Source of the DNA: an uncultured Candidatus Saccharibacteria bacterium
Lineage (GTDB): Bacteria; Patescibacteriota; Saccharimonadia; Saccharimonadales; JACDBH01
Length of the DNA: 64,000 nt
Assembly: GCA_964642275.1 (NCBI GenBank)
Contig: CAZXOA010000001.1
Location: forward strand, 12,729 to 76,728
Reading direction: 5' to 3'
Below are positions 56,799 to 64,000 of this stretch, one piece after another. How positions within the stretch are numbered: position 1 is the stretch's first letter; each line of letters opens with the position of its first letter. The notes below the pieces were generated by a model that saw only the letters and a list, made by a program, of their open reading frames with translations, was not told the origin of the DNA and did not search any database. The translations under genes and the position numbers were made by a program.

Positions 56799-56878
56799 AA
56801 AACACCAAATACTTGCTATATATTGACAAGTATGATATAATTATAAGATAGGCTCATATTTAACACCTATCTGTATTC

Positions 56879-57184
56879 ATGTACAAAGATCAGACACCCA
56901 CCCTACCTAATCCTGATTCACGTCCAGAAGATTGGATTGACTATGCAGCGTGTGCTACTGCAGAGTTTTCGTTTGATGGATTTCCGGAGGCAAAGAGTCG
57001 CAAAAGCGCGTTTGGCTATAAGCACGTTGCGACTGCGGCAAGCATCTGTGCGGACTGCGTCGTTTTCAGCCAGTGTTTGGAAGAGCTGCAAGACACCCGT
57101 CGGACCGATCGTAACACTGGCTCAGTCCAAGCCGGTCACTTCGTCGGCAAAAATGGCGGGTTATTCAATCTCTTAGACCAATAG
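56879..57184 (+). CDS. WhiB-like (Wbl) Fe-S transcription factor
   Basis: W-x3-AAC...FFP-like N-terminal motif (WIDYAACATAEFSFDGFPE) and the Cys pattern C-x30-C-x2-C-x5-C (ICADCVVFSQC). Confidence 0.6.
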   Translation: MYKDQTPTLPNPDSRPEDWIDYAACATAEFSFDGFPEAKSRKSAFGYKHVATAASICADCVVFSQCLEELQDTRRTDRNTGSVQAGHFVGKNGGLFNLLDQ

Positions 57185-57216: not shown

Positions 57217-57351
57217 CTACTGGCCGCGCGTAATCTGCTCGATAATAATCACCTGCTCATCTATAGCTTGTTTTTCGGCCGGCGTGAGCGGCCGTTCGGG
57301 CTTTGGCCGGAATAACTTTTTCAGTGCGCTTAATAATTTAGACATAGTCAT
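57217..57351 (-). CDS. 44-aa peptide ORF directly downstream of the GIY-YIG gene
   Basis: Reads MTMSKLLSALKKLFRPKPERPLTPAEKQAIDEQVIIIEQITRGQ. It starts 13 nt after the GIY-YIG stop. Not in the supplied ORF track (<60 aa). Confidence 0.25.
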   Translation of the reverse strand: MTMSKLLSALKKLFRPKPERPLTPAEKQAIDEQVIIIEQITRGQ

Positions 57352-57363
57352 TACAAAACTTAT

Positions 57364-57651
57364 CTAGTGGCCGCCTTCTACGATATACCCCAGGTCCTTT
57401 AGCTTTACCGCATGTCTATACTCCATATCTAGCGCCTCTTGCCTGGTTTTCAGGTGTGGAATATGTTCGTACAAATCAGGACGGAGCTCAAGTTGCATTG
57501 CGCTGCGCAGACAGGGTGCGGAGTGCGTGCCTTCTTTGTGTTGCTTTAGCCTCTCCTCTGGTTTTAGGTAGGTCTGACCGACATATACATTGTATGGATC
57601 GCCGTCTATCTCTAGAACATAAATACAGTATGTGTATTTTTTGTTTGCCAT
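57364..57651 (-). CDS. stand-alone GIY-YIG nuclease domain protein (95 aa)
   Basis: GIY-YIG motifs: YCIYVLE ... YVGQT ... R (RLKQH) ... E (EALDME). Its start is coupled to the upstream gene's stop, 1 nt apart. Confidence 0.6.
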   Translation of the reverse strand: MANKKYTYCIYVLEIDGDPYNVYVGQTYLKPEERLKQHKEGTHSAPCLRSAMQLELRPDLYEHIPHLKTRQEALDMEYRHAVKLKDLGYIVEGGH

Positions 57652-57652
57652 A

Positions 57653-58636
57653 CTATTCCGTCACCAGTTCAGGATTGAATAATTGGACCGTATGATCCCT
57701 TGGTGTTATGTCGCCAATAGTGGTAAGCTTGGTTATCTCAAGTTTTGGCTTCTTAAGCTCATCATCAGCATCTAGCTTCTTCTGTGTACGGATAATCGTA
57801 GCTTCTATTTCAATCTCTTTGTCAAACAGTGAATCCTTTATATCGCGTATCTCTTTGCTCTTGAGCGTGGATGTCAAAATATGACCACCATACACGAACC
57901 CCAGTGTCCCGGTATTGGTGTTTGCACGTGATAAAGTACCTTTTAATTTCAGATTTTCGCCATGCTGCCACTCTGGGAACACGACCCCGTCATCATCAGC
58001 ATTGTTGCTGCCAAAATAGGGTTTACTATCGGCATCGATTCTAACTATAGTGTCTGACTGTGTTGTCTCGCCGGCCTCACCTATAAAAAGTTGCGTGTCG
58101 TTATCCACGACGCTTGTTATCTTCTTGAATATGTCCTTAGGAGCTTTAGCGTAAGTCTCAAGTTCATCCTTAGTAACGGTCAGCTCTTCTCCAGAAGGGT
58201 TTATTATTACAATGTTGTCAGCGCCAGTTATCTTGGTTTCTTCTGGATGAAATTGGTGTTTGCCCATCACGCCCATATGCTTGGCGATTCTGGCGGTCGA
58301 CTTTATCTTCTTTACCGCTTTATCAAGGATCTCCTTTGATGTTTTATCTCCAACGTCATTCTTGGCCATTTGTGTTCCTGCTGAAATCGCGTAGGCGGCA
58401 AGCCCACCTCCAATCACAACGCTTACCAGCCAAGCTATTAGTGAGCCTGATTCTAGTCGTATCTCGATATCATAATTATCTTTTAACTCTGGGTGCTCTG
58501 AGTTGATAAAATACTTGGTTGTTTTTTCGATGCCAGACAGAATATTATGCACGTCAGTCAGTGTTATTTTGCCGTCCTCAACACGCTTGCCTTCAAGTTT
58601 AATAAAGTTCAGGTTGTCATTTTCGGCTTCACCCAT
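57653..58636 (-). CDS. hypothetical single-pass membrane protein (327 aa) with its own promoter
   Basis: TM helix LIAWLVSVVIGGGLAAYAISAG. No recognisable domain. AT-rich. Leaderless consensus promoter at 58643-58671. Confidence 0.4.
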   Translation of the reverse strand: MGEAENDNLNFIKLEGKRVEDGKITLTDVHNILSGIEKTTKYFINSEHPELKDNYDIEIRLESGSLIAWLVSVVIGGGLAAYAISAGTQMAKNDVGDKTSKEILDKAVKKIKSTARIAKHMGVMGKHQFHPEETKITGADNIVIINPSGEELTVTKDELETYAKAPKDIFKKITSVVDNDTQLFIGEAGETTQSDTIVRIDADSKPYFGSNNADDDGVVFPEWQHGENLKLKGTLSRANTNTGTLGFVYGGHILTSTLKSKEIRDIKDSLFDKEIEIEATIIRTQKKLDADDELKKPKLEITKLTTIGDITPRDHTVQLFNPELVTE

Positions 58637-58642
58637 GTTGAC

Positions 58643-58671
58643 AGTTTAACAATAACCAATCCTACTTGCAA
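58643..58671 (-). promoter_or_regulatory. consensus promoter TTGCAA-17-TAAACT on the minus strand for the 327-aa gene, implying a leaderless transcript
   Basis: Minus strand reads ttgcaa-gtaggattggttattgt-taaact-gtcaac-ATG, so the ATG lies at the predicted TSS. Confidence 0.4.
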
Positions 58672-58702: not shown

Positions 58703-61700
58703 TTATGACATTTCGATAACGGCGATTTCTTCGGGGGTTAGGTTGTAGAGTTGGTAGACTAGTTGGTTGATTTTGGCTTCTTGGGTGGAGATGTCGGCAG
58801 CGGGGTTAGTGGTTTTGACGTCGATGATCTCTGTGACGAGCTGCTCTATCCTAGACTCCAGCTCATCACTACCCGGGCTTGGCTTCGGTATCGGGAAGTC
58901 CGCTACGACATCTCCCTTCAACTCAAGCACATCGCCTTTTACGGCACCTTTATTTTTGAGCCAGACTAGCGCTAGCTTTGAGTTTAGCAATGCTAAACAT
59001 AGCTCTAGGCTCCTTTTTGATGAGTCATACACGAAGTAGGTGTCAGTGCCAGAAAACCACTCGTCTTTAATGAGCGAGAATATATTGGTCTTTGCTCTGT
59101 ATGGAAATACGATTTTATCACCGGTAAACATGCGAACATCTCTTGGCCATAGAAGTGTGTACCAGGCTTGTTTTGAGCGTTTGATCTGGGCTCTGTCGGC
59201 AAGAGCATCGCGGTGCGATTCAAGGTACTTGTATATTTGCGGATTATCTTCTGGCACAAAATCTTTATCAACATAAAGCACACTCTTGGTAGCAAGAGTC
59301 CGGGTTATGTATTTCTTGACATCCGAGTTCTTGAAAAATGGCTTTATGTATTGACGCTCCGATTCGCTGATTTTATCAAAAAAGTCCGGTCGGCCATCAA
59401 ATATAAAAACCGTATTATTACCAGTTTCCAGTCCTTTGCTTACTTTATAGTAGTCCTTTACCCGAGGGTGCTTCAGTGTAATGTCTTCCATTAGCGTATT
59501 GACTAGGTTGTCTCTAAGGTCTATAAAACCGCGACTGTTGTATATGTTAGCCTGGGATATGTTGTAGTATTCGGTGTCTTCATCTATGCCGCTTAGGATT
59601 TGCGGTATAGCAGACGATGAGTCGCCAGGATAGCCCTTCCTGCTCGTTATGATTGTCTGGCAGTCTACATCGTGTTTGCCTTTTCGTAGCTGCGTAATCA
59701 GGTTATGCTGACCGATGGCGCTCTCAAATATCTTCAATTCATGGAAGTTAATGAAACGCAAAGGAGTTGCTCGTGTCTTATAATCTGCACGCAGCTTATC
59801 CGCGTTGGTTGCCGTTAGGTAGTAATTGGTCGAGATGAATGTTAGGACTCCGTTGTCGTGCAGGATATCTAGTCCAAGATGGAAGAAGAAGTAGAACAAG
59901 TCCATCTTGCCCTTGTAGAAGCGTTGGCCTAGGGATGTTGTCTTAAGGTTATCAAACATCGCCTTATGTCCTTTTTCTCCAACATACGGCGGGTTGGCTA
60001 TGACAATATCAAAGCCATCTATACCAAACATCCACTCGGCATCAAACCAGTCCGTTGGCTTGTCTTCAAACGGTTCCCAGCGTGAAAGCATTGTGTATCT
60101 ACCGGAAGCTTGGCCTCCGAATTCATCAATTGTTTTCATGAACATTTGTTTTTGAAGCCGGTCAAACTCGTTTCGCAAAGCTTCGCGCTGGCCAACATTT
60201 GCAGTAAAGTACTCGTCACGTATCCTGCGTAGTGCATCTATGTGGTCGGTGTCTTCTAGTAGCGAGCTTTGTTTTGCTGCAGTTTCGGCAGGCAAACCAA
60301 CGAGTGAGTTGGCAGTGACAAACTTGAAGTCCAGGTTTGGCAGTGGACGGATGCCTCTGTTGTCTTTACTGTCATCAACTTCTTCTTCAATAATCAGTGT
60401 TAGGAAACAGCGGAGCTTTGCGATCTCTGTCGCTATTGTTTGGATATCTACGCCAAAAATGGACTCGCGTATGACGCCAAGCTTTCGCAGGTAATCATAG
60501 TTTTCATTACGATACTTTTCCTCTATATCACGGCGGAGTTCAGGGGAAGTGATGTGTTTGAGCTGATTTTCCAGCCATCGCTCTGCGTGTTCATCAACCT
60601 GCTGGAGTATGTAGACAACCTTTTGCAGGATGCCTATCGGGAACGCACCGGAGCCACAGGCTGGATCGAGTATGGTTAGGCCGGCCAGCGCGGTCACAAC
60701 CTTTTCCTTTTCGCCGTCCGTCAGTTCACGCTCTTTGTCGTCTTCTTGACCCCAACTAATGAGAGCTTTGAGCTTTTCTTCGTCAACACCAGTCTTACAC
60801 TTTAGGCATTCCAGCAGCGAGCTGTCTACCATGTAGTCCACTATTTCGCGTGGCGTGTAGAAGCTGCCAGTGGACTTGCGCGCAGACTCGCCCGTTTCTG
60901 GATTTATTTCAGCCAACAGGTTCTCAAAAATGCGCCCCAGCATTTCCGGGTCGATTGAAAGGTCTACATCGTACGAAGTGTTTTCATCTACCGTAAAGTT
61001 ATACTGTTCGAGGATAGAGAACAGTTCGATAAACCAGCCATCGGGTATAGATACAAGGCCAGGATTGCCGCCGCCGGTGAAACTATTCTGCTGGTAGTAG
61101 TCGCCTGCGTGGGGGCTAAACAGGCCGCCATTCAAATACGGGACAGTTGAGAACGGTACTTCGCGTAGTGATTCGTGGCGTTGCCCAACGCGCTTGTTGA
61201 GCAACTCAAAGAACAATGGCTCAAGAATACTGTGGTAGTAATCGGCATGTGCGGCTACTGCGCTGAGCGACAATAAATCATCGGGTACAATTGGTATTCC
61301 GGCATTACTTTTCTTTTCTTTGAGAAACCAACTAAAAACTATACGACCTATCAGCCTAACCGCAAATTCCTGATGCTCGTTACCCGTATCAGCTTTGCCA
61401 TGAATCTTTAATTGCCCCGGATATTCTTTGATACCACGCTTGCCGCCAACTAGCTTCGTGAAGAGATCGGCCACCGAGGCATAGAACTGCTTATTGACTA
61501 CTTCGACAGAGAAGCGCTCTTGCAGCTGCTTGATATCTTCGACGCGGCCTTTTTCTATCAGGTACTTGTAAGGTGTGACAGTCTTTGCACCTACGCCCAA
61601 TAGGTATGAATAGCGGCGCGGGTTGCTGTCTTTTTTGACCACTTTGCCATCTTTGATCTGTAGCGTAGATGTTAGCAGTGAGAGTCGCCAGTGATCGTTG

Positions 61701-61981
61701 CCGTCGTGAAAGGCTATGATGGCGTTGCGGATTTGGTGGTTACGTAGAACTTTAAAAGCGGCTTGGGTGATTGCGATGCGCTTGCCCGAGTCGGTCTCCT
61801 CACACTCTGCTTCAAGTACCGTAACATCGAAATCCCTCGACTTTGATTCGCCGAGTTTCGTTACGCTGGTAAGGATTGAACCGTCAGCGCGCACTTGGCG
61901 TTCGTCTCTTTGATAATCTGGCAAGAAGCCTTTCAGAAAGGTGTCAAAAAGTTCTTTGTTATAGGGTTTATCTAATATCAT
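58703..61981 (-). CDS. MmeI/PglX-like gamma-class N6-adenine DNA methyltransferase (Type IIG/IIL-like, 1092 aa)
   Basis: MmeI-like N-terminal domain (VPYLNGGLFSPH; TGSFYTPREIVDYMV), SAM motif I ILDPACGSGAFPIG, catalytic motif IV VIANPPYVGEKG, and a roughly 450-aa C-terminal TRD-like region. ATGA overlap with the upstream helicase gene. Confidence 0.85.
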   Translation of the reverse strand: MILDKPYNKELFDTFLKGFLPDYQRDERQVRADGSILTSVTKLGESKSRDFDVTVLEAECEETDSGKRIAITQAAFKVLRNHQIRNAIIAFHDGNDHWRLSLLTSTLQIKDGKVVKKDSNPRRYSYLLGVGAKTVTPYKYLIEKGRVEDIKQLQERFSVEVVNKQFYASVADLFTKLVGGKRGIKEYPGQLKIHGKADTGNEHQEFAVRLIGRIVFSWFLKEKKSNAGIPIVPDDLLSLSAVAAHADYYHSILEPLFFELLNKRVGQRHESLREVPFSTVPYLNGGLFSPHAGDYYQQNSFTGGGNPGLVSIPDGWFIELFSILEQYNFTVDENTSYDVDLSIDPEMLGRIFENLLAEINPETGESARKSTGSFYTPREIVDYMVDSSLLECLKCKTGVDEEKLKALISWGQEDDKERELTDGEKEKVVTALAGLTILDPACGSGAFPIGILQKVVYILQQVDEHAERWLENQLKHITSPELRRDIEEKYRNENYDYLRKLGVIRESIFGVDIQTIATEIAKLRCFLTLIIEEEVDDSKDNRGIRPLPNLDFKFVTANSLVGLPAETAAKQSSLLEDTDHIDALRRIRDEYFTANVGQREALRNEFDRLQKQMFMKTIDEFGGQASGRYTMLSRWEPFEDKPTDWFDAEWMFGIDGFDIVIANPPYVGEKGHKAMFDNLKTTSLGQRFYKGKMDLFYFFFHLGLDILHDNGVLTFISTNYYLTATNADKLRADYKTRATPLRFINFHELKIFESAIGQHNLITQLRKGKHDVDCQTIITSRKGYPGDSSSAIPQILSGIDEDTEYYNISQANIYNSRGFIDLRDNLVNTLMEDITLKHPRVKDYYKVSKGLETGNNTVFIFDGRPDFFDKISESERQYIKPFFKNSDVKKYITRTLATKSVLYVDKDFVPEDNPQIYKYLESHRDALADRAQIKRSKQAWYTLLWPRDVRMFTGDKIVFPYRAKTNIFSLIKDEWFSGTDTYFVYDSSKRSLELCLALLNSKLALVWLKNKGAVKGDVLELKGDVVADFPIPKPSPGSDELESRIEQLVTEIIDVKTTNPAADISTQEAKINQLVYQLYNLTPEEIAVIEMS

Positions 61982-64000
61982 TTGCGCAAATCTTCTGTAA
62001 ACATGATAATTTCACTTACACTGTCGATGGCTTCGGCTTTTTGCTTGATAACATTGAGGTAGTGTGGGGTGAACTTTTGCTTTAATTCCTGAACGGTATC
62101 ACCTAAATTTTCTTCATCTAGACGTAATTGGGAAATATATTTGAGCTCACCGTTCGACAAATCGTCGAATTCACGGATGGCGTCATAAAGATCAAACAAG
62201 TAGTCACGTTCCGGTGGGTATGTTTCTTTGAGTGCCTCGACAATTTTCAGAGCCTCTGCCCTGCGCCCCTGTATCTTCGGCAGGGGGTGCGGAGCAGTAA
62301 TACGTTTGCGCAGTATTTCAAACTTTTTATCCAGCTGCGCGTCACCTTTGAGAGACTTTTCTTCTCTGTCGGCTTTAAAGTGTGGCAACACGAATTCTGG
62401 TGACACGATTTCAGCCCCTAAATCGTACCCTGTGGCCAAGGCAAACATTATTCCATTGCCACGTTTGGCAAATGATATAGATACATTCTTGGCTTTGCCT
62501 TCTCTCACAATACGCGTGCGTTCCGGAATATTCTGAACTTCATTCAATAAATTCTTGTCATGCTTGATCGAGTTATAGATGTTGCGATATTCGTTATCCC
62601 AAGAACGCTCGCTAGATGCTTCGTCTGCATCATTGTATGTACTCTTGAAGTAGCTCTTCAGATCTTCATCTGGTGTAAGTGTGCGGGTATCACTGCCGAC
62701 AATGTTATTGATGAGTAACATTTTGAGTGTGCTTATGCCTTTAACGTTGGCGATGTCTTCACCCACATCAGTCGGGAAGAAATTGTAGATGTAAATGTTG
62801 TCAAACATCTTCTGGTTGATACGGTTGATACGACCTATGCGCTGGACGACTCGGGTTGGGTTGTACGGTATGTCGTAGTTGATAATGATGCCGGCACGGT
62901 GGAGGTTGAAACCTTCTGATAGTGCATCGGTAGCCACAATGATATCGTAGTCGTTTTTCTGATCGCCATCGTACGAGGCATCGAAGTTTTCCGACACAAT
63001 CTTTTTCAGTTCGTTGCCGGATGAACCGGTGTAGAGCAACGTTCGCTCAAGGCCATGCTCTCGCAAATTTTTAGCCACATATTCTGCCGTGTCTGCATAG
63101 CCAGAGAAGATAACAATTTTGCGCTCTGGGTTTTCTGCGAGCAACTCTTGGAGCTTTTGTTCTGTACGCTCTTGCTTTGGGTCGTCGCCAGTCAGGCCGC
63201 GGGCAAACCAATCTTGCTTAATCTTTTGGAGTAGTTCTAGGTCTTTGCGTGCAAATATTGCAAATGAGTCTTCGAAGAGTTCTCGAGGGATAGGGATCGC
63301 AGTTTTTTTGATAGCGTCTATATCAATTTCTTCACCGCTATCAATAAGGCCCATGATCTCGTCTATGGAATCGAATTCTTCTAGGTCATCGGGGTCGACT
63401 AACTCACCTTTTTTCAGAATAGGCACATATCCCTTATCCCACCATTTGAGAATGATGTCATGCGATCGAATCATCTTGTCAAGTGTGGACTGAAAGGCAT
63501 ACTTTGAGCTCTCGAAGCGTTGCACGAGCAACCGGCGCATGAACTGAGCCAGGTTTGCTTGAGCAGTCTTGAGGTCGGTATCGTCGAAGAAGTCCTTGTA
63601 CTTTTCTACAAATTCATCACGATCTCTGATGTATGATGCCGATTGGTAGCGTGCGCCATTAAAGCCATTCTCCGCATCTGTCAATTTTTCTAGCGTACTA
63701 ACATACAGTTGGCGAATATTGCCTAGGTCATATTCAACCAATTCTGGTCCAACTACTTCCGGGAACTCGATATTTTGGTTGTGGAGGTCGTCGGCATACT
63801 CTTTGATTTCTTTGAGGTCAATACGTGACCGTCGAATAATCACTGGTTCGATAAGTAGGCGCAGGTCATGACTAAGTTTTTGCAGCTCGGTCTTAACCTC
63901 ATCAGTCATATTCTTTTTGCCGAGTCTCTCTAGTTTTTTGTATTTACTGATTAAATCGTCGAATCTCAGTCCAAGATTATCAACCGAGTTAATGGTCGAA
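61978..64000 (-). CDS. SNF2-family (SF2) helicase, N-terminally truncated by the window edge
   Basis: Helicase C-terminal lobe with SNF2-type motif VI (DIIVATDALSEGFNLHRAGIIINYDIPYNPTRVVQRIGRINRINQ). The reading frame stays open upstream of the annotated Met at 63909 to position 64000. Confidence 0.7.
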   Translation of the reverse strand, partial: STINSVDNLGLRFDDLISKYKKLERLGKKNMTDEVKTELQKLSHDLRLLIEPVIIRRSRIDLKEIKEYADDLHNQNIEFPEVVGPELVEYDLGNIRQLYVSTLEKLTDAENGFNGARYQSASYIRDRDEFVEKYKDFFDDTDLKTAQANLAQFMRRLLVQRFESSKYAFQSTLDKMIRSHDIILKWWDKGYVPILKKGELVDPDDLEEFDSIDEIMGLIDSGEEIDIDAIKKTAIPIPRELFEDSFAIFARKDLELLQKIKQDWFARGLTGDDPKQERTEQKLQELLAENPERKIVIFSGYADTAEYVAKNLREHGLERTLLYTGSSGNELKKIVSENFDASYDGDQKNDYDIIVATDALSEGFNLHRAGIIINYDIPYNPTRVVQRIGRINRINQKMFDNIYIYNFFPTDVGEDIANVKGISTLKMLLINNIVGSDTRTLTPDEDLKSYFKSTYNDADEASSERSWDNEYRNIYNSIKHDKNLLNEVQNIPERTRIVREGKAKNVSISFAKRGNGIMFALATGYDLGAEIVSPEFVLPHFKADREEKSLKGDAQLDKKFEILRKRITAPHPLPKIQGRRAEALKIVEALKETYPPERDYLFDLYDAIREFDDLSNGELKYISQLRLDEENLGDTVQELKQKFTPHYLNVIKQKAEAIDSVSEIIMFTEDLRK

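Follow-up and report, generated by a model that had tools for sequence, protein, structure and literature searches.

A minimal GIY-YIG nuclease gene and an unrelated companion gene, probable cargo at the tail of a restriction-modification island in a Saccharibacteria genome

The window analysed here is a stretch of 64,000 nucleotides (nt) from the genome of an uncultured Candidatus Saccharibacteria bacterium (contig CAZXOA010000001.1). Towards its end three closely spaced open reading frames (ORFs) follow each other on the minus strand. They code for a protein of 327 amino acids (aa), for a stand-alone GIY-YIG nuclease of 95 aa and for a putative peptide of 44 aa. In the initial annotation the three ORFs were read as one toxin/effector or abortive-infection module. 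In such a module a membrane protein would be the sensor or anchor, the nuclease the effector and the peptide a regulator or antitoxin. The question raised by this locus is whether the three ORFs belong together, or whether they have come to lie side by side independently. We suggest, with a probability of roughly 0.6, that a restriction-modification island was acquired horizontally and that the locus, as its variable 3' tail, holds two unrelated cargo genes, not a three-gene module.

An island with a restriction-like core and a variable tail

The ORFs and their spacing are as first described (Table 1). The 327-aa gene ends with a TAG only 1 nt before the ATG of the GIY-YIG gene, whose own TAG is followed, after a gap of 12 nt, by the ATG of the 44-codon ORF. 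These tight gaps, together with a plausible internal promoter placed for a leaderless start and the setting in a defence island, are what speaks for a module of three parts. We searched 39 loci with the three products (tblastn), and the window's own genome was the only one to carry both the 327-aa gene and the GIY-YIG gene. No GIY-YIG gene lies beside the homologue of the 327-aa gene in the five loci inspected (L001, L002/3, L004, L006 and L040), and no relative of the 327-aa gene lies beside the nuclease gene in any of the nine inspected loci which carry the short form of the latter. Each inspected homologue of either protein has different neighbours. Because the adjacency is not conserved across genomes, the genes do not appear to be a dedicated multi-gene module or a toxin-antitoxin unit. 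The third partner, the peptide, has no homologue and its ORF overlaps a terminator-like hairpin. As the genes are split in all homologous loci inspected, neither the trio nor the pair stands as a toxin/effector or abortive-infection module, and we regard the three-part module as very improbable.

The island comprises four genes on the same strand, namely those of a helicase, a methyltransferase, the 327-aa protein and the GIY-YIG nuclease. The content of guanine plus cytosine (GC) is 0.43-0.47 from the helicase gene to the 95-aa gene as compared to 0.52-0.57 in the flanking genes. Since the GC content is lower than that of the flanks, this region of about 8 kb appears to be a horizontally acquired restriction-modification island. 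It sits between a gene coding for a G5-domain protein and a convergent gene for a WhiB-like protein. No flanking or att-like repeats were found at its boundaries.

The same genome region was recovered from a public assembly as a locus of 14 kb (L011). Here the helicase is complete with 1100 aa and shows the domains PLDc_2, SNF2-rel_dom and Helicase_C, with the phospholipase D (PLD) nuclease of the HKD type at the N-terminus. Its best PADLOC match is C3a139 'HKD+Snf2' (E = 3e-49). The methyltransferase gene, whose start overlaps the stop of the helicase gene by 4 nt, codes for a protein with similarity to the Pfam family Eco57I (E = 3.8e-26) and to the PADLOC profile REase_MTase_IIG (E = 4e-79). 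We assign the helicase as the predicted restriction component and the methyltransferase as the predicted modification and recognition component of the core. A helicase orthologous over its full length (39% identity) is encoded on a plasmid of Parabacteroides distasonis, adjoining a homologous methylase. On this plasmid the core is trailed by other genes, which code for a hypothetical protein, a TIR-domain protein and an AAA protein, and the first of these tail genes is unrelated to the 327-aa family. Judged by these sequence comparisons, the PLD-SNF2 helicase and the Eco57I-family methyltransferase are a conserved two-gene restriction-like unit with downstream cargo that varies between genomes. 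A core followed by a variable tail of cargo is a pattern which has already been described for defence systems (Payne et al., bioRxiv 10.1101/2024.01.29.577857).

Table 1. Positions of the features discussed, in the window or, where a locus is named, in that locus
Feature	Position	Strand	Remark
PLD(HKD)-SNF2 helicase/nuclease, C-terminal two thirds	61978-64000	minus	N-terminus beyond the end of the window; frame open to the end
Predicted Eco57I-family N6-adenine DNA methyltransferase, TaqI_C-like specificity domain, 1092 aa	58703-61981	minus	
Candidate internal promoter TTGCAA-17-TAAACT	58643-58671	minus	read from the sequence
327-aa protein, putative distant relative of PDC-S42	57653-58636	minus	
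95-aa minimal GIY-YIG nuclease	57364-57651	minus	Pfam PF01541
44-codon ORF, probably not a gene	57217-57351	minus	
Terminator-like GC-rich hairpin with U-run	57270-57321	plus	terminator scan match at 57295-57311
WhiB-like small protein gene, convergent, at the island edge	56879-57184	plus	
Promoter of the WhiB-like gene, TTGCTA-17-TATAAT, extended TG	56813-56841		plus strand; best promoter match in the region
Core pair, window	58703-64000	minus	
Core pair, L011	3357-9934		
Core pair, L049	2739-9402		
NYN-domain gene between Type III Mod and Res, and GIY-YIG copy at the tail, L038	4162-4716 and 8001-8345		
Cas4-like PD-(D/E)XK protein, 256 aa, L007	5292-6062		also in L008 and L009
Relative of the 327-aa protein, L040	9001-9909		Vibrio
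Relative of the 327-aa protein, L041	9001-9927		Vibrio

The GIY-YIG nuclease behind restriction-modification genes

The conserved partner of the GIY-YIG gene is the restriction-modification operon directly upstream, which was missing from the initial annotation. The family occurs in a short and in a long form, and the short form is found directly behind a restriction-modification gene on the same strand in eight of nine independent loci inspected. These nine were drawn from at least 21 short-form proteins among the best 120 relatives. In the window the nuclease gene is preceded by the SNF2/methyltransferase pair and then by the 327-aa gene. It follows a Type III Res gene (PADLOC REase_III, E = 1e-270) in L005, with GmrSD downstream, and it follows Mod and Res, with an ATGA overlap, in L007-10, where a gene for a Cas4-like PD-(D/E)XK protein lies downstream. 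In L038 the preceding genes are Type III Mod, an NYN gene and Res, in L030 Type I hsdM/S/R and in L044 a split Eco57I-type methyltransferase. In L014 a Type I hsdMSR operon with two small genes ends in the nuclease gene, and GmrSD is nearby. Mostly these are ATP-dependent restriction-modification operons in which the nuclease gene takes the last position, and often it is translationally coupled to the preceding gene.

Some of these loci have an arrangement of their own. The L007-type Type III loci contain a four-gene translationally coupled operon of Mod, Res, GIY-YIG and Cas4-like genes, the last of which starts right after the GIY-YIG stop. In L038 the NYN-domain gene is set between Mod and Res. 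A Slx1-like GIY-YIG domain is also known as an insertion in the HsdR subunit MCA0838, and stand-alone Slx1-like nucleases have been found paired or fused with N-methyltransferases, including operons of a methyltransferase and a GIY-YIG gene (PMC1564403).

The 95-aa protein matches the Pfam family GIY-YIG (PF01541) over residues 8-79 with 26.2 bits (cutoff 22.6). The residues Y11, Y23, G25, R34, H38 and E77, taken to be the catalytic set, are invariant in our alignments of 11 (11/11) and of 120 relatives (120/120). Specific to the family, and also invariant in 120 of 120 relatives, are Q26, R57 and the C-terminal GGH-COOH, which in the window protein is part of the terminal motif VEGGH-COOH. 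As both the catalytic and the family-specific residues are invariant, the alignment indicates purifying selection on a presumably active enzyme.

As had been recognized initially, the protein is reduced to the catalytic domain and has no DNA-binding extension. In the alignment no conserved Asn follows E77. In the Slx1-like minimal clade (Dunin-Horkawicz et al., PMC1564403) an auxiliary domain and the C-terminal Asn of the UvrC lineage are likewise absent. Since the protein has neither of the two, its sequence fits a minimal GIY-YIG nuclease of the Slx1/UPF0213 type. When the profile was compared with the PDB, the nearest solved structure was 1ywl (UPF0213 protein EF2693, E = 1.1e-3), followed by Slx1 (E = 0.19). 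We found no NCBIfam match at E ≤ 0.1 and no matching PHROG family. There was no PADLOC match to the window protein at E ≤ 0.01, nor to four short-form relatives and one long-form relative at E ≤ 0.001.

The family is small. A single-sequence search among 5.8 billion proteins retrieved 11 relatives and a profile search 1091, and the family is present at only 3 loci among 185,579 species genomes. The best 120 of the 1091 relatives include 94 proteins of the long form (151-200 aa) and 21 of the short form (≤100 aa). The long form (L012, L015-L029, P0191-P0296), typically about 176 aa in length, has a conserved N-terminal extension which is unrelated to the 327-aa family. The few long-form records that carry an organism name all belong to Saccharibacteria (TM7). 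Saccharibacteria are epibionts of actinobacteria, and gene flow between these two groups is conceivable. Viral contigs, phages and plasmids gave no match to the nuclease (scan and tblastn).

We considered whether the gene could code for a housekeeping repair nuclease of the YhbQ/UPF0213 type that is adjacent to the island by chance. The nearest solved structure is indeed a UPF0213 protein, and the long form is the majority of the family with its few named records all from Saccharibacteria. The gene, however, has the GC content of the island and not that of the genome, and it recurs at the tails of restriction-modification systems. Moreover the family lacks an NCBIfam match and is extremely rare outside Saccharibacteria, as seen from the 3 loci in the species genomes. 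A housekeeping role is in our view hardly credible. The rarity of the family, in particular the 11 relatives among 5.8 billion proteins, is also in line with the initial annotation, which had not counted the protein as a member of a conserved housekeeping family.

Another explanation would be that the nuclease gene is a selfish hitch-hiker without function for the host, which lodges at the 3' ends of restriction-modification operons. It would then be understandable that the gene trails unrelated classes of restriction-modification systems and that one copy (L038) appears to be frameshifted; the Slx1-like insertion in HsdR was judged recent and possibly functionless (PMC1564403). We note, however, that the DNA similarity among the loci ends at the ORF boundaries, with no shared flanks, repeats or target site, and that in most loci the GC content of the copy is near that of its locus. 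The protein has no DNA-binding or specificity domain which could serve homing, and the catalytic residues as well as Q26, R57 and GGH-COOH are kept in all 120 relatives, indicating purifying selection. We therefore consider a hitch-hiker unlikely. Two related candidates were rejected. There is no sign of a mobile cassette for the gene, since shared flanks and repeats are lacking. A homing endonuclease is unlikely too, as the initial annotation had suggested, because a NUMOD or helix-turn-helix DNA-binding module is absent from the C-terminus of the protein, the loci have no homologous DNA in common beyond the ORF, and the context is one of defence.

The 327-aa protein, its promoter and the edge of the island

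The 327-aa protein itself has no match in Pfam, NCBIfam or PADLOC. It matches PHROG 32975, a family of unknown function (E = 1.7e-30). We found 21 close relatives among 5.8 billion proteins, and a profile search among 1.84 billion representatives retrieved 227 clusters, nearly all of them full-length with 300-350 aa. A scan of viral contigs gave no match, and in phages and plasmids tblastn detected relatives on two Vibrio replicons only, both unannotated there. PDC-S42 (PADLOC profile PDLC05015) is matched by 19 of 72 aligned relatives, collinearly at positions 8-205 of 302 and with a best E of 5e-9. From these alignments we suggest that the protein is remotely related to the candidate PDC-S42 and would form a distant branch of that family. 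The PDC entries are phage defence candidates which have been defined by their embedding in BREX, DISARM or Type I restriction-modification systems (Payne et al., bioRxiv 10.1101/2024.01.29.577857).

The surroundings of the relatives vary. One relative lies 61 nt behind an AlwI restriction-modification system (L004), another has genes for a Schlafen-like helicase, a MazG-like protein and a Fic protein as neighbours (L002). The closest homologue, with 68% identity, is flanked by a Schlafen AlbA_2 gene on one side and by the gene of a large serine recombinase on the other (L006), and in the region of one relative a DUF3800 gene alone is of possible defence relevance. The Vibrio relatives (29% identity) belong to Vibrio aquimaris and Vibrio sp. 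THAF190c (L040 and L041), in each case on the second replicon. Their surroundings are unannotated and contain small cassette-like genes, among them those of a GNAT protein and an IS110 transposase, and the region could be a superintegron.

An AlphaFold2 model built from the alignment of 72 sequences reached a mean predicted local distance difference test (pLDDT) score of 86. From the N-terminus onwards the protein consists of an alpha/beta region, the Gly/Ala-rich hydrophobic segment of residues 63-91, a middle domain and finally a barrel at about residues 225-310. With Foldseek only the C-terminal ~100 residues of the model found matches in the PDB, all of which are oligonucleotide/oligosaccharide-binding (OB) folds: anticodon-binding domains of aspartyl-tRNA synthetases, RPA, Ten1, RMI2, SSB and HIN domains. 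A full-length analogue was not found in the PDB, and the sequence search of the family against the PDB returned noise only. The model thus predicts that the C-terminal third of the protein is an OB-fold-like barrel. In a library of viral structures we observed full-length resemblance to uncharacterised phage proteins (E = 2e-7 to 2e-6), which with a TM-score of about 0.3 we judged too weak to use. One weak viral match is annotated as DUF6575, and no member of the 327-aa family matches DUF6575 in Pfam. DUF6575 occurs in an experimentally validated defence system of E. coli (PMC9519451).

The predicted OB fold leads to a further possibility, namely a lineage-specific pair, recently assembled here, in which the 327-aa protein would supply DNA binding to the nuclease in analogy to Slx4-Slx1. 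Folds of the OB type typically bind nucleic acid, a DNA-binding domain is what the nuclease lacks, the gap of 1 nt suggests translational coupling, and nucleases of the Slx1 type need partners (PMC1564403). On the other hand, we found no second locus with both genes, and elsewhere the 327-aa family is solitary. Nor is such a partnership reflected in a gene fusion (Rosetta-stone test), because the N-terminal extension of the long-form nuclease is unrelated to the 327-aa family. A pair of this kind appears quite unlikely to us.

The initial annotation had called the 327-aa protein a membrane protein of unknown fold, and this description is doubtful. There is one hydrophobic segment: residues 63-91 form a stretch of 29 uncharged residues, and a 19-residue window reaches a Kyte-Doolittle mean of 2.13 at residues 66-84. 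In the alignment of close homologues 17 of 19 sequences reach the usual hydropathy threshold of 1.6, and the segment is uncharged in this close subfamily. In the wider family it is not kept, as only 23 of 72 relatives reach 1.6 anywhere and the aligned stretch is charged in many of them. In the AlphaFold2 model residues 66-75 form a beta strand and residues 77-94 are disordered; no helix is predicted. Membrane insertion is thus possible, with a single anchor at most, and the bulk of the protein would be soluble. As to the fold, the C-terminal third is the OB-fold-like barrel described above.

The promoter had been described as a consensus leaderless promoter. Its position suits a leaderless start, but the sequence falls short of the consensus. 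TTGCAA (58671-58666) is followed by a 17-nt spacer, TAAACT (58648-58643), 6 nt and the ATG of the 327-aa gene. With only 8 of 12 matches to the sigma-70 consensus the site was not listed by our promoter scan, which had a threshold of 9/12. Counted from the A of the start codon, the -10 hexamer occupies -12 to -7. It agrees with the TANNNT form of actinobacteria, and no Shine-Dalgarno sequence precedes the gene. Because of the placement of the -10 hexamer and the missing Shine-Dalgarno sequence a leaderless start is plausible. By a rough estimate of ours, which was not computed by a tool, the chance of such a hexamer pair at a given start codon is about 1%. Read-through from the restriction-modification operon into the 327-aa gene seems equally possible and would be expected, since the spacer of 66 nt between the methyltransferase gene and the 327-aa gene is without stable hairpin or terminator (z = 0.19).

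The 44-codon ORF had been proposed as a part of the module, a proposal which finds no support. A homologue of the peptide was found neither in the 39 loci (tblastn) nor in the phage and plasmid collection, and among the PHROG families there was only a weak match (E = 0.02). In L011 the gene caller passed the ORF over, and the sequence upstream of it, ataagttttgta, contains no Shine-Dalgarno motif. Among random 179-nt sequences with matching composition about 4% contain an ORF of this kind. Inside the ORF, on the opposite strand, lies a hairpin of -23.9 kcal/mol (z = -2.24; 4 of 200 shuffles were as stable) which is followed by a U-run. Most likely this hairpin terminates the convergent WhiB-like gene, and the 44-codon ORF is probably spurious, a non-coding sequence which holds that terminator.

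The WhiB-like gene converges on the GIY-YIG gene. Its product scores just below the cutoff of the Pfam family Whib (22.6 bits against 23.6 bits), and its GC content of 0.51 is intermediate. The gene may be island cargo or a regulator. The WhiB-like, G5, ThrE and Abhydrolase_9 genes present here have an actinobacterial look. With Rfam only two tRNAs were found.

A possible mode of action and comparison with known systems

We suggest that the tail of the island could operate as follows. Both cargo genes are probably transcribed by read-through from the operon and from the weak internal promoter. The 327-aa protein might bind nucleic acid with its OB-fold domain, and its Gly/Ala-rich hydrophobic segment could tether it to the membrane or insert into it. 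It would then act by itself, as a stand-alone sensor-effector of the abortive-infection type. The GIY-YIG nuclease would be brought to DNA by a partner, most plausibly by a restriction motor or by the DNA structures which such a motor creates. We propose recruitment by a partner because the 95-aa core has no DNA-recognition module, and the eight restriction-modification neighbours suggest what this partner might be. Once recruited, the nuclease would add strand cleavage as an auxiliary or back-up nuclease.

Several observations weigh against two unrelated cargo genes at the tail of a defence island. One of the nine short-form loci (L045-48) is the exception and has no restriction-modification neighbour. 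The inspected long-form loci are not linked to restriction-modification systems, so that being an accessory to them is no inherent property of the nuclease family. In L038 the GIY-YIG copy gives two tblastn segments in different frames, and this apparent frameshift suggests that the gene may be dispensable for restriction. The link of the 327-aa protein to PDC-S42 is transitive and runs via relatives of 22-36% identity, as the window protein itself does not match the profile. Finally, the spacing of 1 nt and the possible shared promoter are compatible with a lineage-specific functional pairing.

With independent cargo as the preferred reading, the comparative context corrects a view to which the spacing and a promoter-like site had led. 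Two candidates emerge from the island. One is a branch related to PDC-S42 with a confident model of an OB fold, the other a small and strongly conserved family of GIY-YIG nucleases without an entry in PADLOC or NCBIfam. Should the nuclease help translocating restriction enzymes, the well-studied Type I and Type III systems would gain a shared accessory factor. If it gives no such help, it would be one more example of defence-island cargo.

The core of the island resembles two known systems. DISARM class 1 (DrmD and DrmMI) and BREX with PglX likewise place an SNF2 helicase beside a large Eco57I-like adenine methyltransferase. The helicase of the window, in contrast to theirs, has its own PLD nuclease domain. 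We rejected an assignment of the core to DISARM class 1, as DrmD scored 118.5 bits against a cutoff of 610 and DrmA, DrmB and DrmC are missing from L011. An assignment to BREX was rejected as well, with PglX at 64.3 bits against a cutoff of 500 and no other Brx genes in L011.

The 327-aa gene can be compared to the genes found by guilt-by-embedding, among them PDC-S42, which are likewise single genes carried as same-strand cargo on a restriction-modification operon (Payne et al., bioRxiv 10.1101/2024.01.29.577857). The cargo in the window differs in that it lies behind the last core gene and not between core genes. PDC-S42 is a candidate only, and no mechanism can be transferred from it to the 327-aa protein.

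For the nuclease, UPF0213/YhbQ proteins (1ywl, 1zg2) are also stand-alone domains of about 95 aa with the set of Tyr, Tyr, Arg, His and Glu. The similarity is marginal, and UPF0213 proteins have not been described with Q26, the R57-P-D motif or the terminal VEGGH-COOH. In the HsdR protein MCA0838 the Slx1-like domain is inserted into the restriction subunit (PMC1564403), whereas in the window it is encoded by a separate gene at the operon tail.

More distant parallels are PrrC with EcoprrI and BrxU with BREX, where a second gene of nuclease type is likewise co-oriented with a restriction system and possibly provides a back-up layer. PrrC is an ABC-ATPase anticodon nuclease and BrxU a GmrSD enzyme, and they have no homology to the genes of the window. 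A GIY-YIG catalytic domain is also directed against invading DNA in PD-T4-3, PD-lambda-1 and the Type II restriction endonucleases Eco29kI, Cfr42I and Hpy188I, the first two of which were reportedly described as GIY-YIG defence proteins by Vassallo and colleagues in 2022. These defence proteins and endonucleases are larger and carry DNA-recognition extensions, of which the 95-aa protein has none, and none of their PADLOC models was matched by it. The components of the tail, defence-island cargo and a minimal Slx1-like GIY-YIG nuclease, are thus both of known kinds, and it is the recurrent position of the mini-nuclease at the tails of restriction-modification systems that is of most interest here.

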